A DNA stretch of 20,000 nucleotides. Origin: an uncultured virus (IMG/VR IMGVR_UViG_3300035498_001325) (taxonomy: Duplodnaviria > Heunggongvirae > Uroviricota > Caudoviricetes). Positions 1,805-14,945 of this stretch are shown here, piece after piece; the first letter of the stretch is position 1; each line of letters opens with the position of its first letter. The position numbers and the translations under genes are program-made. The DNA lies in IMG/VR virus record IMGVR_UViG_3300035498_001325, one strand, 5' to 3'. The notes below the pieces were generated by a model, which worked only from the letters and a program-made list of their open reading frames with translations, searched no databases and had not been told where the DNA came from.

Positions 1805-1960
1805 ATTATAAAAGCCTGTACTTTGTGACATACTCCCCCACCTACGCTACGCTAAGAGGTGGGAGCTTCTGATTCAACAGACGTTTCCCACTCAATACAT
1901 CCAGTGATGTAAGTATCAATGGGCTAACCCCGTGTGTCCCACGGTTCTTTTATACTAAGA
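1805..1960 (-). ncRNA. TnpB omegaRNA (reRNA): scaffold plus flank-derived guide
   Basis: GC-richer structured segment after the tnpB stop (GAACCGTGGGACACACGGGGTTAGCCC... to TCAC), followed by the putative guide AAAGTACAGGCTTTTATAAT (1824-1805). The 5' end is uncertain and may overlap tnpB. Confidence 0.75.
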
Positions 1961-3058
1961 TAATGCTATTCGCATACCCTCGTTTTTGATATTTATACTT
2001 GCATTTACATCCCTGTCGTGATGTGTTCCACATTGAGGGCAATCCCACGCTCTGATTGACAAATTCTTTGTATCGGGGTTTTTATATCCGCAACAAGAAC
2101 AAGTTTGAGAACTTGCAAAAAACTTGTCTATCTTAATCAGTTGTTTGCCTTGTTCTTCCAACTTGTATTTCAAAAATGTTGTAAACATTCCCCAACCATT
2201 ATCCGCTACAGACTTTCCAAAGTTCAACGCTTGTGACATTGCTTTCATATCAAGATTTTCAATACAAACACAATCGTAATTTTTAGCTAACTTGTTTGAT
2301 AACTTATGTAAGAAATCTTTCCTTTGGTTAGTTACCTTTTCAAATAGTCTATCAACTTTTAGACGTTGTTTGTTACGATTATTACTACCCTTAACACACT
2401 TAGATAGTTTTCGTTGTTCTTTTGCAAGTCTTTTCTGTACTTGTCTGTAGTACCTTGGACACTCTGCAAAAGTGTTATTATTAGCAACGTATAACTCTTT
2501 CATTGAGAAATCAAAACCTAGGAAAGTTGTGGGTTCTATTGCTTGTACTTGGCTTTCGTACTCGCATAAGATACTTACATAATACTTTCCACTTGGAGTT
2601 TGGCTAATCGTTGCGGATTTTATTTTGTAGTCATTTGGAATTTGCCTATGTACCTTGACTTTAACTAAATCCTTTAGTTTAGGTAATTTTAATAGGTTGT
2701 TTTCTAAAGTGATACTGCCTTTTTGATTGTTAGTAGTATAACTTTTTCTATTCTTATGCTTAGATTTGAACTTAGGAAATCCCACTTTTGGATTGGTGAA
2801 AAAACTCTTGAACGCTTTTTGCAAGTTCATCTGAACATTAGAAAGTGCTAAACTATCAACGTCTTTGAGCCATTCAAATTCGGTCTTATACTGTGCAGGT
2901 GTATTATTTAGAGTTTGCTTATGCTCTTTGTAGTAGTCTATCTTATCTAATAACATCTTATTCCAAATAAACCTAACACATCCAAAACATTGAGCAAAGA
3001 ATACTCTCTGTTCATCGTTTGGATATATTCTAAACTTATAGGCTTTATTACGTTTCAT
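1955..3058 (-). CDS. tnpB: RNA-guided endonuclease TnpB (367 aa)
   Basis: N-terminal KAYKFRIYP, RuvC-I GFDFS, RuvC-II IENL, Zn finger CSCC/CPQC, RuvC-III DRDVNASINI. ATG 3058 is preceded by SD GGAGG; the 47-aa extension in the ORF track spans the left-end hairpin and promoter. Confidence 0.95.
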   Translation of the reverse strand: MKRNKAYKFRIYPNDEQRVFFAQCFGCVRFIWNKMLLDKIDYYKEHKQTLNNTPAQYKTEFEWLKDVDSLALSNVQMNLQKAFKSFFTNPKVGFPKFKSKHKNRKSYTTNNQKGSITLENNLLKLPKLKDLVKVKVHRQIPNDYKIKSATISQTPSGKYYVSILCEYESQVQAIEPTTFLGFDFSMKELYVANNNTFAECPRYYRQVQKRLAKEQRKLSKCVKGSNNRNKQRLKVDRLFEKVTNQRKDFLHKLSNKLAKNYDCVCIENLDMKAMSQALNFGKSVADNGWGMFTTFLKYKLEEQGKQLIKIDKFFASSQTCSCCGYKNPDTKNLSIRAWDCPQCGTHHDRDVNASINIKNEGMRIALS

Positions 3059-3091
3059 TTTTTCTCCTCCAATCCTAAAATTTATGATATT

Positions 3092-3120
3092 ATTATAATA
3101 CTTTACACTTAATTTGTCAA
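3092..3120 (-). promoter_or_regulatory. sigmaA promoter inside the IS, driving tnpB
   Basis: TTGACA-17nt-TATAAT, perfect consensus. Confidence 0.85.
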
Positions 3121-3192
3121 TAGTGAAACGCAATTCTTCCCCCACTTTAGAAGTGGGGGAATTCTTGCTGAAATTAGTTAAATAAATTTTTC

Positions 3193-3221
3193 TTGACAAA
3201 TAATAAAATAAGTAATATAAT
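3193..3221 (+). promoter_or_regulatory. sigmaA promoter for the 23-aa peptide
   Basis: TTGACA(3193)-17nt-TATAAT(3216). Confidence 0.85.
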
Positions 3222-3241
3222 AAGTATGAGGTGATAAATAT

Positions 3242-3313
3242 ATGAGTATTAATTTAATACCATTTATAGTTTTCATGGGGAGCGTTGTAATGTCTGTCAA
3301 AATATTCTTTTAA
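3242..3313 (+). CDS. 23-aa hydrophobic peptide MSINLIPFIVFMGSVVMSVKIFF
   Basis: Has its own consensus promoter, SD GAGGTG and a terminator directly after the stop. Not in the ORF track. Confidence 0.7.
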   Translation: MSINLIPFIVFMGSVVMSVKIFF

Positions 3314-3341
3314 AAAGGGAGATAAATAATTATCTCCCTTT
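3313..3341. terminator. Bidirectional intrinsic terminator
   Basis: AAAGGGAGATAA-ataa-TTATCTCCCTTT. Confidence 0.8.
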
Positions 3342-7233: not shown

Positions 7234-9057
7234 ATGGAAACAAAATTAAAAGTAACATTATTAGATTACACACCTGAACCTGAAAAGTTAATTGCAGCAG
7301 CAGCTAAATTGTGTTATAGTTCATCTGACATTGAACACTTATATGAAAACCAAACTCCTGAGAAAGTAGAAAGTTTTTTAAATAGATTGGTAAATATAGG
7401 ACATTGTTTTGATGAAGAAACAGAAGTTCTTACTTCTACTGGATTTAAACCATGGAAAGATATAACAGAAAACGACCTTATTGGAGCTATTAATCCCACA
7501 ACGATTGAATTTGAAGGTTTTGAAAAACCAATTCAATTATTTAATTATGAAATAGATGATGATATGATTGAATTTAATCATAAATTGTTAAGTTTAAAGG
7601 TTACGACAGGACATAATTTATTTTGTTCAATATCAAATACTGCTAAAAATAGAGTAAATCCTACATTTAAATTGATAAGAGCAGACGAAACATTAAGAAC
7701 AGGTAAGGAAGTTTGGGAATCTCCATTAAGGATGTTAAGATGTGCTAACAATAAAAACAACGAAACCAATGATAGTGATATTATCTTCGCATTATATGGT
7801 TTTTTTATTGGTGATGGAAGTACTACAACCAATCATTCAATTATTTTTCATTTAAAGAAAAAACGTAAAATAGACTATTTAAAAAATTTATGTGAGAAAT
7901 TAAATTTAAAGTTAGATATATTAAAGAATGATAAATATAGTATAAAAAACTTAAAGGATGATTTTAAAGAAATGTTTTATAATGAAAACAAAGATAAAAC
8001 ATTTCCTAATTCTTTTTTTACAATGACTAAAAATCAATTTGATTATTTTTTAGAAGGGTTACATAATTCTGATGGTAATTATATGGATTATATACGATAT
8101 CATAAAAGTATATATTATTTCACAATGAGCAAAGAATTAAAAGATAAAATACAAGCTTTATGTGCAATAAACGGTAGAGCTACTTCTGTAAAAGTTAGAA
8201 AAACAGGTTGTTATGTAATCAATATAAACAGGAACAAAGATAATACCCCTATGTTTAATGATTCAAGAAATAAAAAAGCTCATGCACAAAAAGTACATTA
8301 TAAAGGGAACGTATATTGTGCCACTATATCAACAGGGCTTTTAATGATAAGAAGAAATGGATTTGTTTGTTTATGTGGAAATTGCTCGCCAATGGAACAC
8401 ATTTCATTTACATTTGGTATAGAAGGTGTTAGTAGAACTTTAACGCATCAATTAGTTAGACATAGAATCGGATGTTCCTTCTCGCAAAAATCCCAGAGGT
8501 ATGTGTCTGAGGAACAATTTGAATATATTATGCCTGAACAAATAAAAGATAATTACCATACAAAACAAATTTATACTACTTTAATGCACGATATACAGCA
8601 GAAGTATAATGATATGGTGGATATTTTATTATATCAAAAAATAATGGATAACAATAAAGATTGGAAAGAATATAATAAATTGTTTATTAACGAGGAAGAA
8701 AATTATAGTGTAAGAGAAGTAATAGATAAATTTAAGGAATACGATAAGAAAACTTATTCTCAATATGAAAAATCTATTATTGAAGATGTTAGATATGTAT
8801 TGCCTAATGCTACTGAAACTAAAATTGTTGTTACAATGAACTTTAGAGCTTTAATGAATTTCTGTCAGGAAAGATGTTGTATGAGAGCACAGTGGGAAAT
8901 AAGAGAATTAGCTAACGAAATGATTAGATTAGTTAAACCTCTTTGTCCGCATTTATATAAATTATTAGCTCCAAGTTGCGTTACAGATAAATGCAAAGAG
9001 GGTTATATGAGTTGTGGTAAAGCTAAAGAAATGAAAGAATTTTTTGAAAATATTTAA
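7234..9057 (+). CDS. thyX: Flavin-dependent thymidylate synthase ThyX, intein-containing
   Basis: AAAAKLCYS, GH|CSPMEH, GVSRTLTHQLVRHR..SFSQKSQRYV, RYVLPNATET, N.R.L, ER.C.RAQWEIR. Spliced product about 281 aa. Confidence 0.93.
   Translation: METKLKVTLLDYTPEPEKLIAAAAKLCYSSSDIEHLYENQTPEKVESFLNRLVNIGHCFDEETEVLTSTGFKPWKDITENDLIGAINPTTIEFEGFEKPIQLFNYEIDDDMIEFNHKLLSLKVTTGHNLFCSISNTAKNRVNPTFKLIRADETLRTGKEVWESPLRMLRCANNKNNETNDSDIIFALYGFFIGDGSTTTNHSIIFHLKKKRKIDYLKNLCEKLNLKLDILKNDKYSIKNLKDDFKEMFYNENKDKTFPNSFFTMTKNQFDYFLEGLHNSDGNYMDYIRYHKSIYYFTMSKELKDKIQALCAINGRATSVKVRKTGCYVININRNKDNTPMFNDSRNKKAHAQKVHYKGNVYCATISTGLLMIRRNGFVCLCGNCSPMEHISFTFGIEGVSRTLTHQLVRHRIGCSFSQKSQRYVSEEQFEYIMPEQIKDNYHTKQIYTTLMHDIQQKYNDMVDILLYQKIMDNNKDWKEYNKLFINEEENYSVREVIDKFKEYDKKTYSQYEKSIIEDVRYVLPNATETKIVVTMNFRALMNFCQERCCMRAQWEIRELANEMIRLVKPLCPHLYKLLAPSCVTDKCKEGYMSCGKAKEMKEFFENI
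7405..8382 (+). mobile_element. 326-aa intein with LAGLIDADG homing endonuclease
   Basis: Block A CFDEETEVLT, block B VTTGHNL, LAGLIDADG-like YGFFIGDGS and FLEGLHNSDG, block F/G VYCATI...CGN followed by +1 Cys. It splits the conserved GHxSPxEH motif. Confidence 0.92.
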
Positions 9058-11592: not shown

Positions 11593-12639
11593 TTAGTTGA
11601 TTTTGAACTTTGGGTCTTCTATTTGATTGATGAAATCCATCACATAAACTCTACCCTCAACAGTAAGTGTTTTCCATTTTTCAACTATCATTTCAAGTAA
11701 TATATTTGACATAGTTTTTTCCTTGTCAACAAAAGCGTTCTTCTTATCTTCTTCTTTTGAAGATTGAAGATACATTTGATTATTACTTTCAATATTAAGT
11801 TGTGGCTTGTTTTCGGATAACTGTTGACTATTAACAGCTTCTGCTAATTCATTCATAGATTTAACAAATATTTTCTTATTTGTTTCGTTTCTTTTTTTAA
11901 TGAGTTCTTCCTCTACTTCTTGAAGCTGTGCAAGTTGAGCATCTACTTCTGAAATAGGATTAGCTTCAACTATTTCTTCATCAATAATATCTTCTAAAAT
12001 ATCTTCTGATACAATGTTTTCAGAAATAATATTATTAGAAGTAGTATTATTAGAAGTAGTAATATTATTAGAAGGAATGTTTTCAGTATCAACATTACTT
12101 GAAACGGATTTAGCGTTTTTACTTCTTTTGCGAGGAGTTTTATTAGCAACAATTTCATTATATACTTTTTCATTTACCTCATTTACTATATTGAGTTCTT
12201 CATCAGTACAATATTTTGATACATCAAATGAGAGTTTCTTGTATTCTTCTGCTGTTGAAATACCTTCTATTGCATCGAAATCTTCAACCTCTGAAGTTTC
12301 ATCGCCAATACCAAAGAATAAATATTTAAATGAAATGTTTAAAGCTCTTGCTAAAAAAACAATGACATTGCCACTTAAGCCACTTGTACTACTATAATTC
12401 TTTTCATCAAAACTTTTACCAAAGTATTTATTGATATTGTTTATATTTGCAACAGCACCGCCATATTTTTCTGTATTTTCTGCTGCAAATTTTCCTAATG
12501 AAATAGAGTTATCATTTGAGCTTTTCTTTTTACCGTTAAAGTTTACTCCCATTTTGCTTAAATAGGTTAAACCTCTTTCTCTTACTTCTTTTGTGAAGTA
12601 AATAGGAATTGCATTCTTTTTGCATCTAGACATAAACAA
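11593..12639 (-). CDS. Hypothetical protein with XRE/Cro-like HTH segment and acidic low-complexity linker
   Basis: SGNVIVFLARALNISFKYLFFG resembles XRE-family helices 4-5. Confidence 0.6.
   Translation of the reverse strand: MFMSRCKKNAIPIYFTKEVRERGLTYLSKMGVNFNGKKKSSNDNSISLGKFAAENTEKYGGAVANINNINKYFGKSFDEKNYSSTSGLSGNVIVFLARALNISFKYLFFGIGDETSEVEDFDAIEGISTAEEYKKLSFDVSKYCTDEELNIVNEVNEKVYNEIVANKTPRKRSKNAKSVSSNVDTENIPSNNITTSNNTTSNNIISENIVSEDILEDIIDEEIVEANPISEVDAQLAQLQEVEEELIKKRNETNKKIFVKSMNELAEAVNSQQLSENKPQLNIESNNQMYLQSSKEEDKKNAFVDKEKTMSNILLEMIVEKWKTLTVEGRVYVMDFINQIEDPKFKIN
12028..12074. repeat. In-frame short tandem repeat (TATTATTAGAAG x3)
   Basis: Copies at 12030, 12045 and 12063, encoding SNNII/SNNTT/SNNIT. 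Confidence 0.7.
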
Positions 12640-13092: not shown

Positions 13093-13782
13093 TTATTTAA
13101 AAAAGGCTTTTCTGATAAAGTTACAAATCCTATTAGATTTATAAATATTAGGATAGAGGAAATCTATAAAGTCTTCACTATGAGTTGCAATACCTTTTCT
13201 CATTAATACCATTCTATTTGCATCGTATTCGGGTTTTGCAAATCTCTTTACTTCATCAATACTTAAATCGAAATCAGAAAAAGCCGTTCTTATTACTTCC
13301 ATTTGCTTAGAATTAAATCTTGAATCAGCAAATATTTTAATTTTTTCATAACTTAATTCATTGGTAACAAATCCTAATTCCACCTGCGTTAATTGGTCAA
13401 AATTTAATGGTTTAAGAATTTGAGCTTCTTCTATTGACATACCTTTATCTAAGCAATTCAATACTAATTTCATTGAAAAATCATCAAATTCGCCTTTTAT
13501 AAGAAAATCTATTTTATCTTCACTTGTTTTATTTAACATAGCTCCTAATAAGAAACTTAATTGTTTAGCATCAAAGCCCTCTACTAAAATTTTCTTAACT
13601 TGGTCTATAGATAATCCTTTTAAAAATCCAGTAGCTATTACCCCTAAAAGTTCCTGAGAATAATGTTTTTCATCTTTACAGTAATAATAAAAATCCTTCT
13701 TTTCTTGTTGTTCAGGTGTTAAAGTTTTCGGTCTATATCTATCACTACTCAACTTTTTCAATTTTAATATCACCCTATTCAA
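13093..13782 (-). CDS. Helical repeat protein (about 29-aa repeats)
   Basis: About 5 repeats of F(D/N)xxQ(L/M)xx(I/V)xxG/A..GLSx(D/E)x(V/I). TTG start with SD GGGGG. Confidence 0.7.
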   Translation of the reverse strand: MNRVILKLKKLSSDRYRPKTLTPEQQEKKDFYYYCKDEKHYSQELLGVIATGFLKGLSIDQVKKILVEGFDAKQLSFLLGAMLNKTSEDKIDFLIKGEFDDFSMKLVLNCLDKGMSIEEAQILKPLNFDQLTQVELGFVTNELSYEKIKIFADSRFNSKQMEVIRTAFSDFDLSIDEVKRFAKPEYDANRMVLMRKGIATHSEDFIDFLYPNIYKSNRICNFIRKAFFK

Positions 13783-13879
13783 AATAATATCCCCCTTTAT
13801 TGTTTTTTACAATAAAAAAATAGACTTAATATGATTAAAAATATTTTTTAAAAAAATTGAACTTTTTTAAAAAAAGTAC

Positions 13880-13908
13880 TTGACAAATTGCAAATACTGT
13901 GCTATAAT
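13880..13908 (+). promoter_or_regulatory. sigmaA promoter (extended -10) driving a non-coding transcript
   Basis: TTGACA(13880)-17nt-TATAAT(13903) with TGn, plus upstream A/T tracts. Confidence 0.88.
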
Positions 13909-13913
13909 TACTA

Positions 13914-14045
13914 ATGTAATCAAGGAACGGTAAAAATTGATTACAGGATAGATTGGGTTTGTAAAAAACTCCTTTTGTCTTAGTTTTAGTGTTTTGTGTT
14001 TTGTTTACGGTTGAAGAAAGCAGGTATTGATTACCTGCTTTTTTC
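13914..14045 (+). ncRNA. Putative ~130-nt small regulatory RNA
   Basis: Bounded by a perfect promoter and a terminator, with no credible ORF. 5' hairpin TGTAATCAA/TTGATTACA, anti-SD CTCCTTTT (13969-13976), GU-rich tract. Confidence 0.7.
14014..14045. terminator. Intrinsic terminator (bidirectional)
   Basis: AAAGCAGGTA-ttgat-TACCTGCTTT followed by a T-tract. Confidence 0.85.
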
Positions 14046-14078
14046 TTTTATTTATAAATGTTCTTTAATTATAAATAT

Positions 14079-14885
14079 TTAATATTGTTCTTCATCATTA
14101 GATGTTCTAATCTTTACTACATTCTCTAAACAAGATTTACCCATATAGAATGAAACGACTACACCAAAAGGCGTTGATATAAATGATAATAATTCAGATG
14201 GTAATGTACCTTTTATATACCACATAATCCAAGATACTACCCAAGTAAAACCAAACAATATTGTTACCATAATTGTAATTAATTTACTAAATTCTAAATT
14301 ATGGAAATAATAAGAAAGACTAATTGTTTCTTCTGTCATTTCTTCTGTTTCAGTTTTAGCTCTACGTGGGAAAAAAGTGTTTCTCTCTTTTTCTACCTTA
14401 ATAGATGGTTTAGTAACAACATTAGGAGCTATACTTTCCTTTATTACATTAGTTGCATAATTTACAGGAGTATCAACTTTTGATTGAGGAGATACTACTG
14501 CTTGTGGATTGTCAATAGGTATTTGTACATTTTCATTTAAAAACCTATTCATTGAAGCTATTTGTTCTTCTTCACCATTTTCTTCATTATTTTTAGTAGT
14601 ATCTTCTATAGTTTCTTCGTTTTCTACTGATTCTTCATTATTTACATTATTATCAATTTGCTCATTATTAAAAGTTTCAATATTATTTTCAATATTAACC
14701 CCCGTAGGTCTATTTTTTATATTTGGAGGTTCAGTATTATTTTGTACAGCATCAGGAATTTGATTGTATTCTTCTATTGGAATTTCATTATTACTTACAG
14801 TTTCAATATTTTCATTGTTATTTTCTTCATTATTATTTTCTTCAATATTTACTTCTTCATTATCTATTTTCTTTTTTCTACCCAC
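14079..14885 (-). CDS. Membrane protein: long acidic N/E-rich N-terminus plus two C-terminal TM helices (holin-like)
   Basis: LEFSKLI..TM..TM..FYMGKSCLEN resembles small Firmicutes phage lysis-region membrane proteins. GTG 14885 has SD GAGGTG at 6 nt; the ORF track starts at 14894. Confidence 0.65.
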   Translation of the reverse strand: MGRKKKIDNEEVNIEENNNEENNNENIETVSNNEIPIEEYNQIPDAVQNNTEPPNIKNRPTGVNIENNIETFNNEQIDNNVNNEESVENEETIEDTTKNNEENGEEEQIASMNRFLNENVQIPIDNPQAVVSPQSKVDTPVNYATNVIKESIAPNVVTKPSIKVEKERNTFFPRRAKTETEEMTEETISLSYYFHNLEFSKLITIMVTILFGFTWVVSWIMWYIKGTLPSELLSFISTPFGVVVSFYMGKSCLENVVKIRTSNDEEQY

Positions 14886-14945
14886 ATTCTTCACCTCTCC
14901 TTTTTTATATTTAATAGTTTTATTTAAATTTTTTATATAAAACTA

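Follow-up and report, generated by a model that had tools for sequence, protein, structure and literature searches.

Short antisense RNAs transcribed from constitutive promoters are represented among phages by lambda OOP RNA and P22 Sar, each overlapping a defined target gene in its coding sequence or at its start. Prophages and plasmids of the Bacillota carry type I antitoxin small RNAs (sRNAs), such as SR4 (with bsrG), RatA (with txpA), and RNA II of par (with fst). The C-rich or anti-Shine–Dalgarno (anti-SD) sRNAs of the Bacillota, RsaE/RoxS, RNAIII, and SprD, hold conserved C-rich motifs in loops or single strands. In Bacillus, mRNAs are also stabilized from the 5′ end by the stem-loops of the aprE and ermC leaders, the cryIIIA STAB-SD, and the early RNA stabilizer of phage SP82. 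Non-coding RNAs of jumbo phages have been mapped by differential RNA sequencing (dRNA-seq) or ONT-cappable-seq in phiKZ (PMC8244752) and 201phi2-1 (PMC11512511). Here, a predicted non-coding RNA of ~134 nt was examined in a stretch of 20,000 nucleotides (the window) from an uncultured virus of the Caudoviricetes (IMG/VR record IMGVR_UViG_3300035498_001325). The locus is a 296-bp gap separating two minus-strand genes, A and B, and the RNA unit is antisense to both. Our tentative reading, held at somewhat less than even, is that it may be an early non-coding transcription unit acting in cis on these neighbouring genes. The sequence at its start site belongs to a promoter-coupled module that recurs in many other phages, and this module is the more unusual result. 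The closest record, a 224-kb viral contig referred to as G001, has 27% of the window k-mers in common and served for comparison.

The features of the locus, by position in the window, are as follows.

13844 to 13877, + strand: near-palindromic A/T-tract element (T6A7 .. T6A7) that immediately precedes the −35 hexamer.
13880 to 13908, + strand: extended sigma-A-type promoter, with TTGACA (13880–13885), a 17-nt spacer, and TGc-TATAAT (13900–13908).
13915 to 13924, + strand: start-site motif TGTAATCAAG, with the predicted +1 at G13916; sole exact copy in the window.
13915 to 13945, + strand: 5′ hairpin (HP1), 9 bp with a 13-nt loop; −7.7 kcal/mol, z score −5.3, 0 of 200 shuffles as good.
13945 to 13981, + strand: central hairpin (HP2), −12.1 kcal/mol, z score −3.6, 1 of 200 shuffles as good.
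13982 to 14012, + strand: GU-rich linker (UGUUUUG repeats), the GU tract lying at about 13982–14008; predicted to be single-stranded co-transcriptionally.
14013 to 14053, + strand: intrinsic terminator hairpin (14013–14045) and U-tract, 33 nt past the gene A stop codon.
14079 to 14894, − strand: gene A, 271 aa, converging on the terminator; 75% identical to its G001 homologue.
13093 to 13782, − strand: gene B, 229 aa, with 98 nt between its start and the opposite-strand −35 hexamer; 76% identical in G001.

Like OOP and Sar, the locus is a small promoter-to-terminator unit lying between phage protein genes and opposite to them, with an RNA in the range of roughly 70–130 nt and a strong 3′ hairpin. 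Unlike them, it overlaps no open reading frame (ORF), so that antisense action would need read-through or a long gene B leader. The type I antitoxin sRNAs resemble it in being convergent to a neighbouring gene, in sharing a bidirectional terminator, and in their AT-rich, Gram-positive mobile-element setting; the partner here, however, is a protein of 271 aa in place of a hydrophobic toxin no longer than 60 aa, and the overlap would be the terminator only. No minus-strand ORF of at least 30 aa was found in 13783–14078, nor any conserved small hydrophobic ORF, of the kind expected of a cis-antisense or type I toxin–antitoxin pair. The RNAs reported from phiKZ (PMC8244752) and 201phi2-1 (PMC11512511) are similar small transcripts of large phages, without assigned function and set by promoter and terminator. 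Those are Pseudomonas phages with RNA polymerases of their own, and the RNAs were seen experimentally, whereas the RNA here is predicted and its promoter is of the host sigma-A type.

The promoter is a perfect extended one, as had been claimed for it in an earlier reading of the letters alone (the original prediction); it scored 12/12 with the extended TG and was the sole 12/12 site among 26 promoter-like sites between positions 12000 and 16000. Perfect TTGACA-N17-TATAAT sites numbered five in the 20-kb window, this one included. Promoter sites with up to two mismatches numbered 25, against 11.9 expected, a count reached in 0 of 200 shuffles; the remaining strong promoters each lead to a Shine–Dalgarno (SD) sequence and a start codon. 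The two arms of the upstream element (13844–13858 and 13860–13874) are 93% complementary. Runs of at least five A residues within 22 nt upstream of the −35 hexamer were present at 23 of 40 early promoters of G001 with a 17-nt spacer, compared with 8% of random positions, and the A/T-tract at 13844–13877 may act as an UP element. With its TTGACA, 17-nt spacing, (TG)nTATAAT, and A/T-tract upstream, the promoter belongs to the group's sigma-A early class. It is also bracketed, at 13802–13812 and 13959–13969, by a perfect inverted repeat of 11 nt, GTTTTTTACAA / TTGTAAAAAAC, with a chance expectation estimated at about 0.2. This repeat was set aside: at the RNA level, the gene B leader and the sRNA would share one word and not be complementary.

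Transcription from about G13916 to the terminator would yield a ~134-nt RNA with a full-length predicted fold of −42.1 kcal/mol (z score −5.6), its elements being predicted to arise co-transcriptionally in the order HP1, HP2, single-stranded GU-rich linker, and terminator. The 9-bp 5′ hairpin described in the original prediction was found as a perfect inverted repeat (13915–13923/13937–13945). The complementarity noted there between the 5′ arm and the terminator was also recovered, as an exact 8-nt match of GTAATCAA to TTGATTAC in the terminator loop (14027–14034). A 9-nt direct repeat, ATTGATTAC, occurs in two copies, 90 nt apart. The terminator is as strong as had been supposed: its hairpin has a stem of 14 pairs (5 G-C) closed by a loop of 5 nt, with TTTTATTTAT as the tail, and a folding energy of −20.2 kcal/mol (z score −7.8). 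A G+C-containing stem-loop with a U-run (a T-run in the DNA) directly after it is what characterizes an intrinsic (Rho-independent) terminator. The scan called this terminator on the + strand only; it is probably shared with convergent gene A.

No credible ORF could be assigned to the RNA, in keeping with the earlier observation that it offers only ATG-TAA (13914–13919). ORFs of at least 30 aa were absent from both strands of 13783–14078, and none of at least 8 aa on either strand of the gap was common to the window and G001; minus-strand frames of 18 and 14 aa do not correspond in frame between the two phages, and neither is preceded by an SD. ARAGORN detected no tRNA or tmRNA in the window. 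A search of Rfam 15, proposed as a check alongside the original prediction, gave no match at the gathering score in the whole window. With E values up to 10, 11 weak matches were obtained in 13700–14200, the best being to rli61 (23.2 bits against a gathering score of 50), where the best-aligned paired part was the terminator hairpin.

All comparison rests on two sequence variants, that of the window and the G001 type (three viral contigs, identical across the intergenic region), because metagenome, architecture, phage, and plasmid searches added no relatives. Among 5.8 billion proteins, gene B was represented by two clusters, its own and the 77%-identical G001 type, the latter also present on a contig of about 500 kb, and the protein search with gene A returned only itself. 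The viral scan by protein gave three loci, identical across the intergenic region; the same three viral loci, and no metagenome stretches, were recovered with an architecture pattern (motif, 65–95 nt, terminator). In the metagenome scan, which was based on an alignment of two proteins, 599 pattern stretches were matched, of which none was confirmed. No match was obtained by blastn against phage and plasmid collections, and tblastn with gene B gave one unannotated record, 34% identical.

G001 is syntenic for genes A and B (75–76% protein identity), with the gap unit on the same relative strand. Its promoter, TTGACA-17-TGgTATAAT, also scores 12/12 with TG, all 12 hexamer positions, the TG, and the 17-nt spacing being kept. 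Its start sequence, TGTAGTCAAG, is likewise syntenic and is the sole copy in 224 kb, the first 10 transcribed bases being retained. Identity between window and G001 is 22/29 over the promoter and 25/33 over the terminator, where the GCAGGT/ACCTGC stem is kept and the loop has changed; a core stem and U5 could be seen by eye in the G001 terminator, which the simple scan does not call. The flanking gene DNA is 77–83% identical, and third codon positions 76–77%. The RNA body (13925–14012) is the least conserved segment, below third codon positions, with 35 identical positions in 88 alignment columns and 20 gaps; the two bodies are nevertheless still homologous (z score 3.5, equalled by 1 of 1000 shuffles). 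The promoter-coupled start motif aside, the window and G001 have no conserved body block of at least 7 nt. The G001 body is about 20 nt shorter, with two 10-nt indels; its GU linker is shortened to GUGUGUG with a 10-nt deletion, and a short GU stretch precedes the terminator in both. In both RNAs, the 5′ end is base-paired, through a local stem in the window and a long-range one in G001, a CU-rich 12–13-mer stands at the same relative place, and a purine-rich and a pyrimidine-rich tract occur together.

The original prediction had described an exposed anti-SD sequence and read the RNA as an early trans-acting repressor of phage or host translation. An anti-SD-type sequence, AAAACUCCUUUU (13965–13976), and the GU-rich tract are indeed present. 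However, the former is predicted not to be exposed: CUCCUUUU (13969–13976) is carried by the 3′ arm of HP2, where CUCCUUU (13969–13975), which we take to be the core of the 16S anti-SD, would pair with AGGAUAGAuuGGGUUU. The probability of being unpaired is 1.3e-6 for CUCCUUU in the full-length ensemble and 8.9e-6 for CUCCU. It is the GU-rich linker that is predicted to be single-stranded and not the anti-SD, and an accessible motif as in anti-SD or C-rich sRNAs was not found. By our own arithmetic from base frequencies, CUCCUUU would occur by chance in about 1% of 130-nt AT-rich RNAs. The original prediction had been staked on conservation of the hairpins and the anti-SD in relatives, and in G001 the features behind it are gone: UUCUUCUUUCUU stands where CUCCUUUU would align, the CUCC core is missing, HP1 has no local partner, and the terminator loop is without TTGATTAC. 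RsaE/RoxS-type sRNAs resemble this RNA in having a pyrimidine tract complementary to GGAG-type ribosome-binding sites and differ from it in that the tract here lies in a stem and its CUCC core is not retained.

Predicted pairing with phage 5′ regions gave a mixed picture. Against early ribosome-binding regions, each RNA body did better than its mononucleotide shuffles (0 of 100 as good in each case), but on 34 early ribosome-binding regions the G001 body was matched by 10.7% of 300 random genomic 80-mers. Complementarity of more than 13 nt between either body and the G001 genome or the window was not found. The early leaders of G001 are rich in ACAC (13.9/kb versus 0.76/kb in other upstream regions; 11 of 34 versus 4 of 132), and their CA-rich words often stand just before a U-run and SD. 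These words may be a translational enhancer or regulatory site. The GU linker of G001 could form 11-bp duplexes with two early leaders (−13.7 and −13.6 kcal/mol). Its pairing with 32 early leaders was no better than with 132 other upstream regions (Mann–Whitney p 0.82), and its count of duplexes at or below −8 kcal/mol was equalled by 28% of 400 random 22-mers, and pairing of the GU linker with ACAC leaders is a lead, not support. From the original prediction, then, the early sigma-A-driven non-coding unit is retained on the strength of promoter class and conservation in G001, and the anti-SD repressor mechanism finds no support, the tract being unconserved and predicted to be paired.

The start-site motif was examined more widely by scanning a viral collection and one-genome-per-species bacterial contigs for the module TTGACA-N16-18-TATAAT-N4-7-TGTARTCAAG. 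Matches numbered at least 133 in the viral collection and at least 126 among the bacterial contigs, and two controls, with the 10-mer reversed or permuted, gave 0 and 0 viral stretches. Both loci fit the module, the window having a 6-nt gap after TATAAT and then TGTAATCAAG, and G001 a 5-nt gap and then TGTAGTCAAG. Among the matches listed, which hold 125 unique viral occurrences, the gap between TATAAT and the 10-mer was 5 nt in 105 and 6 nt in 20, and the sequence continues A-G-A. A near-consensus promoter precedes 123 of these 125, including 4 of the 6 non-seed ones; an SD and open frame follow in 108 (median distance 48 nt), and the downstream sequences fall into 82 unrelated clusters ranging in G+C from 0.19 to 0.61. 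The exact 10-mer was present on 105 of 242 strong promoters of motif-bearing phage loci. Within the phage lineage studied here, it occurs once per genome, at this locus, both in the window and in the 224 kb of G001; of the 50 strong promoters in G001, 5 bear a variant with up to two mismatches, as do 0.7% of random positions, and the others drive normal mRNAs. Bacillus phage G contains no motif sites. Searches for printed descriptions of the motif as 10- to 13-letter strings, covering text and not figure logos, retrieved only unrelated primer or gene matches.

The bacterial matches, among those listed, were mostly from Clostridia, with some from Erysipelotrichaceae, Staphylococcaceae, and stray phyla. 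Several are on short contigs with many copies, which are probably phage, and one metagenome-assembled genome had 11 sites against 0 for the control. Others precede ordinary genes, with tRNA genes in 6 of 6 loci inspected. At seven bacterial loci (L178, L199, L201, L240, L243, L250, and L271), a CIRCE-like inverted repeat, TTAGCACTC..GAGTGCTAA, was seen over the −35 region together with TGTAATCAAG; in the related heat-shock promoters, the downstream hairpin partner shifts register between species and the 10-mer is fixed. Two viral loci, L097 and L134, have two convergent TGTAATCAAG promoters across about 200 nt and an ORF of about 35–45 aa with a hydrophobic N terminus, a fully overlapping sense/antisense pair that recalls type I toxin–antitoxin systems.

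Hairpins follow the motif more often than they do in shuffled tails. Over 239 unique instances, at least four of the first 6 nt were paired in 40%, versus 22% of shuffled tails, and the mean minimum free energy of the motif tail was −5.7 versus −3.4; an exact GUARU complement was found within 25 nt in 10% versus 1.7%. In the window, the hairpin on or just after the motif is the 9-bp HP1, and in G001, there is only a long-range stem. Because the motif is widespread and is followed by hairpins in this way, HP1 is best read as a local form of a general leader composed of start motif and 5′ hairpin, not as a device peculiar to this RNA. The module probably serves efficient initiation and 5′-end protection, not target recognition. 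The likeness to the 5′ stabilizers of Bacillus lies in a hairpin at or very close to the 5′ end, behind which a purine-rich, SD-like stretch is often found; none of those stabilizers is known to have the fixed 10-mer of the TGTARTCAAG module, for which stabilization is inferred.

On the reading that we tentatively favour, host sigma-A RNA polymerase would start at about G13916 and make a ~134-nt non-coding RNA consisting of 5′ hairpin, central hairpin, GU-rich linker, and terminator hairpin, stopping at the terminator that would also close convergent gene A. A strong early promoter would in this way fire against the direction of genes A and B. By one route, any transcript that reads through from gene A to gene B would be met by an RNA of perfect complementarity; by another, occupancy of the promoter would cover DNA overlapping a weak promoter on the gene B strand. 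Either would hold gene B down or insulate it early in infection. Action in cis is suggested because the promoter, start motif, and terminator stem are kept and the RNA sequence is not, drift of the latter being immaterial in cis; lacking an ORF and antisense to both neighbours, such a unit would depend on its place and activity more than on its sequence. Read-through from gene A is plausible because the terminator is called on the + strand only. In keeping with this reading, the window scan gave no sigma-A-like promoter of at least 9/12 placed to drive gene A or gene B. On the gene B strand of G001, the reverse complement of the start motif yields TTGACT-17-TAGCAT (9/12), which overlaps the promoter of the RNA.

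A number of points weigh against such a role. The promoter on the gene B strand of G001 is weak at 9/12 and has no window counterpart of at least 9/12. The G001 hairpin has a good U-run in the direction of gene A, and read-through from that gene is conjecture. The position of the pyrimidine-rich tract is kept in both RNAs, and a 5-bp helix changes from AAGGA/UCCUU to AAGAA/UUCUU with one compensatory pair, both of which hint at constraint on the RNA itself. Retention of the promoter goes just modestly beyond neutral expectation: for 14 key positions at neutral identity, 0.76^14 is about 0.02 by our own arithmetic. The ~134-nt transcript is itself predicted from sequence alone, and with two sequence variants, covariation and rate tests have no real power. 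The unit is most simply described as a plausible new phage non-coding RNA, predicted and ordinary in kind.

Among the alternatives, a base-pairing early sRNA that acts in trans, repressing phage or host mRNAs through the pyrimidine-rich tract or the GU-rich linker, appears unlikely. Its architecture of 5′ hairpin, internal hairpin, U/GU-rich single strand, and strong terminator is that of a stable sRNA, and the low chance frequency of CUCCUUU, the CU-rich 12–13-mer shared in place by both variants, and the advantage over mononucleotide shuffles at early ribosome sites would all suit it, as would the 11-bp duplexes of the linker with two of the ACAC-rich early leaders of G001. Set against these are the unconserved CUCC core, the almost wholly paired state of the tract, the random genomic 80-mers that pair as well with the 34 early sites, the lack of selectivity of the linker for early leaders, and the want of any conserved body block of at least 7 nt other than the start motif. 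It is also doubtful that the unit is a functionless by-product, in which a strong early-type promoter, kept by chance or surviving from a small early gene since lost, directs transcription into the gene A terminator and gives an inert RNA. Such an origin is in keeping with a body that evolves faster than third codon positions and has taken two 10-nt indels, with gene A accounting for the terminator, and with a promoter retention of p about 0.02 against 76% neutral identity; the phage also builds small promoter–ORF–terminator units (a 23-aa ORF at 3242–3313 follows a perfect promoter), and a decayed one is conceivable. It fits less well with the retention in both lineages of a perfect extended promoter, A/T element, and start motif, and no ORF remnant is common to the window and G001. 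Both RNAs hold the 5′ end in a stem, and selection for RNA stability is suggested for that reason.

That the sole perfect copy of the motif, in the window and in 224 kb of G001 alike, belongs to this non-coding unit, that the motif is the best-conserved transcribed part, and that variants with up to two mismatches are enriched on strong G001 promoters could point to a decoy or sponge. A leader copy without cargo would then titrate a host or phage factor that reads the leader, or would mimic a host RNA such as an antitoxin RNA or, on an idea prompted by a preprint (10.64898/2026.06.03.729762), a CRISPR repeat or guide RNA. We regard this as quite improbable: promoter and start-site function explains the motif equally well, because its distance from TATAAT is fixed at 5 or 6 nt, and there is no Rfam match. 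A wider proposal is that TGTARTCAAG and its hairpin form an undescribed, deeply shared sigma-A initiation and 5′-leader element, found in hundreds of unrelated Bacillota phages and on host genes (tRNA, dps, heat-shock, glnA) and read by a conserved host component. The window RNA would then be the bare, gene-less element, which early in infection would divert that component or compete for it, or would act as an anti-leader RNA on the CA-rich leaders of the phage's own early mRNAs; taken as a whole, this would be improbable. Least credible, and very improbable indeed, is a very small peptide encoded by the RNA. A 4-codon UUG frame lies 9 nt after AAGGAA, and a 13-aa frame starts in the terminator, but no frame is common with G001, none has a convincing SD and start, and a 47-aa frame of G001 begins upstream of the predicted transcription start.

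The window, at 26.9% G+C, is AT-rich DNA of a large (jumbo) phage. Its proteins include a RecJ-like exonuclease, a TnpB-type transposase homologue, a LAGLIDADG-interrupted ThyX, a papain-like protease with an SLH domain, and an actin-like partition protein, through which the closest named phage is Bacillus phage G (59.8% identity). The gene A protein has an acidic, Asn/Glu-rich N-terminal part and a hydrophobic (two-helix) C terminus; it gave a weak match to a PHROG of unknown function and no Pfam family. For genes A and B and their neighbours, no usable family was obtained with Pfam (E up to 5), PHROGs, or the ESM Atlas. A late- or middle-type motif shared by the upstream regions of genes A and B (TTAAATATA and variants) was considered and discarded, not being enriched near G001 starts (6 of 49, versus 3 of 42 for the reversed word). 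Signs of a replication origin were also sought: in the whole window, there was no GC-skew turning point at the locus, and no iterons were seen, just the A/T-tract palindromes.

Several other elements were observed in the two phages. At 3193–3341 of the window, a perfect promoter (3193–3221) is followed by an SD, a 23-aa hydrophobic ORF, MSINLIPFIVFMGSVVMSVKIFF (3242–3313), and a terminator-like hairpin. A similar peptide unit was seen in G001, and the ORF at 3242–3313 may be a small membrane peptide or type I toxin-like gene. It adjoins a TnpB/IS200-IS605-type transposase homologue at 1955–3199 on the − strand (PHROG 506, E 2e-127), which has its own perfect sigma-A-type promoter at 3092–3120 (− strand). 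The thyX gene at 7234–9057 (+ strand) is interrupted by a domain of LAGLIDADG type (Pfam LAGLIDADG_3, with Thy1 matched in two separate stretches), which suggests an intein or an inserted homing endonuclease. In G001, a promoter-driven, G+C-richer, and apparently structured RNA occurs in three copies, at about 118346 (+), 171948 (+), and 97138 (−), with a ~50-nt common block; it has no SD or ORF and no Rfam match at the gathering score. The sole Rfam match in G001 is a group I intron (RF00028) at L280:9566-9899 on the − strand, with 51.7 bits against a gathering score of 50.

The small RNAs of phages infecting Gram-positive bacteria are barely charted, and confirmation of an early RNA in a phage G relative would bring one more example. 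Should the cis reading be true, the locus would show plainly how a strong antisense promoter can gate the genes beside it. Beyond the locus, the 10-base start motif keeps its fixed place behind consensus promoters in at least 82 unrelated phage contexts, with G+C from 19% to 61%. It could improve the annotation of promoters and 5′ ends in gut and soil phage metagenomes, and it may be a candidate for strong, stable expression cassettes in Bacillota.

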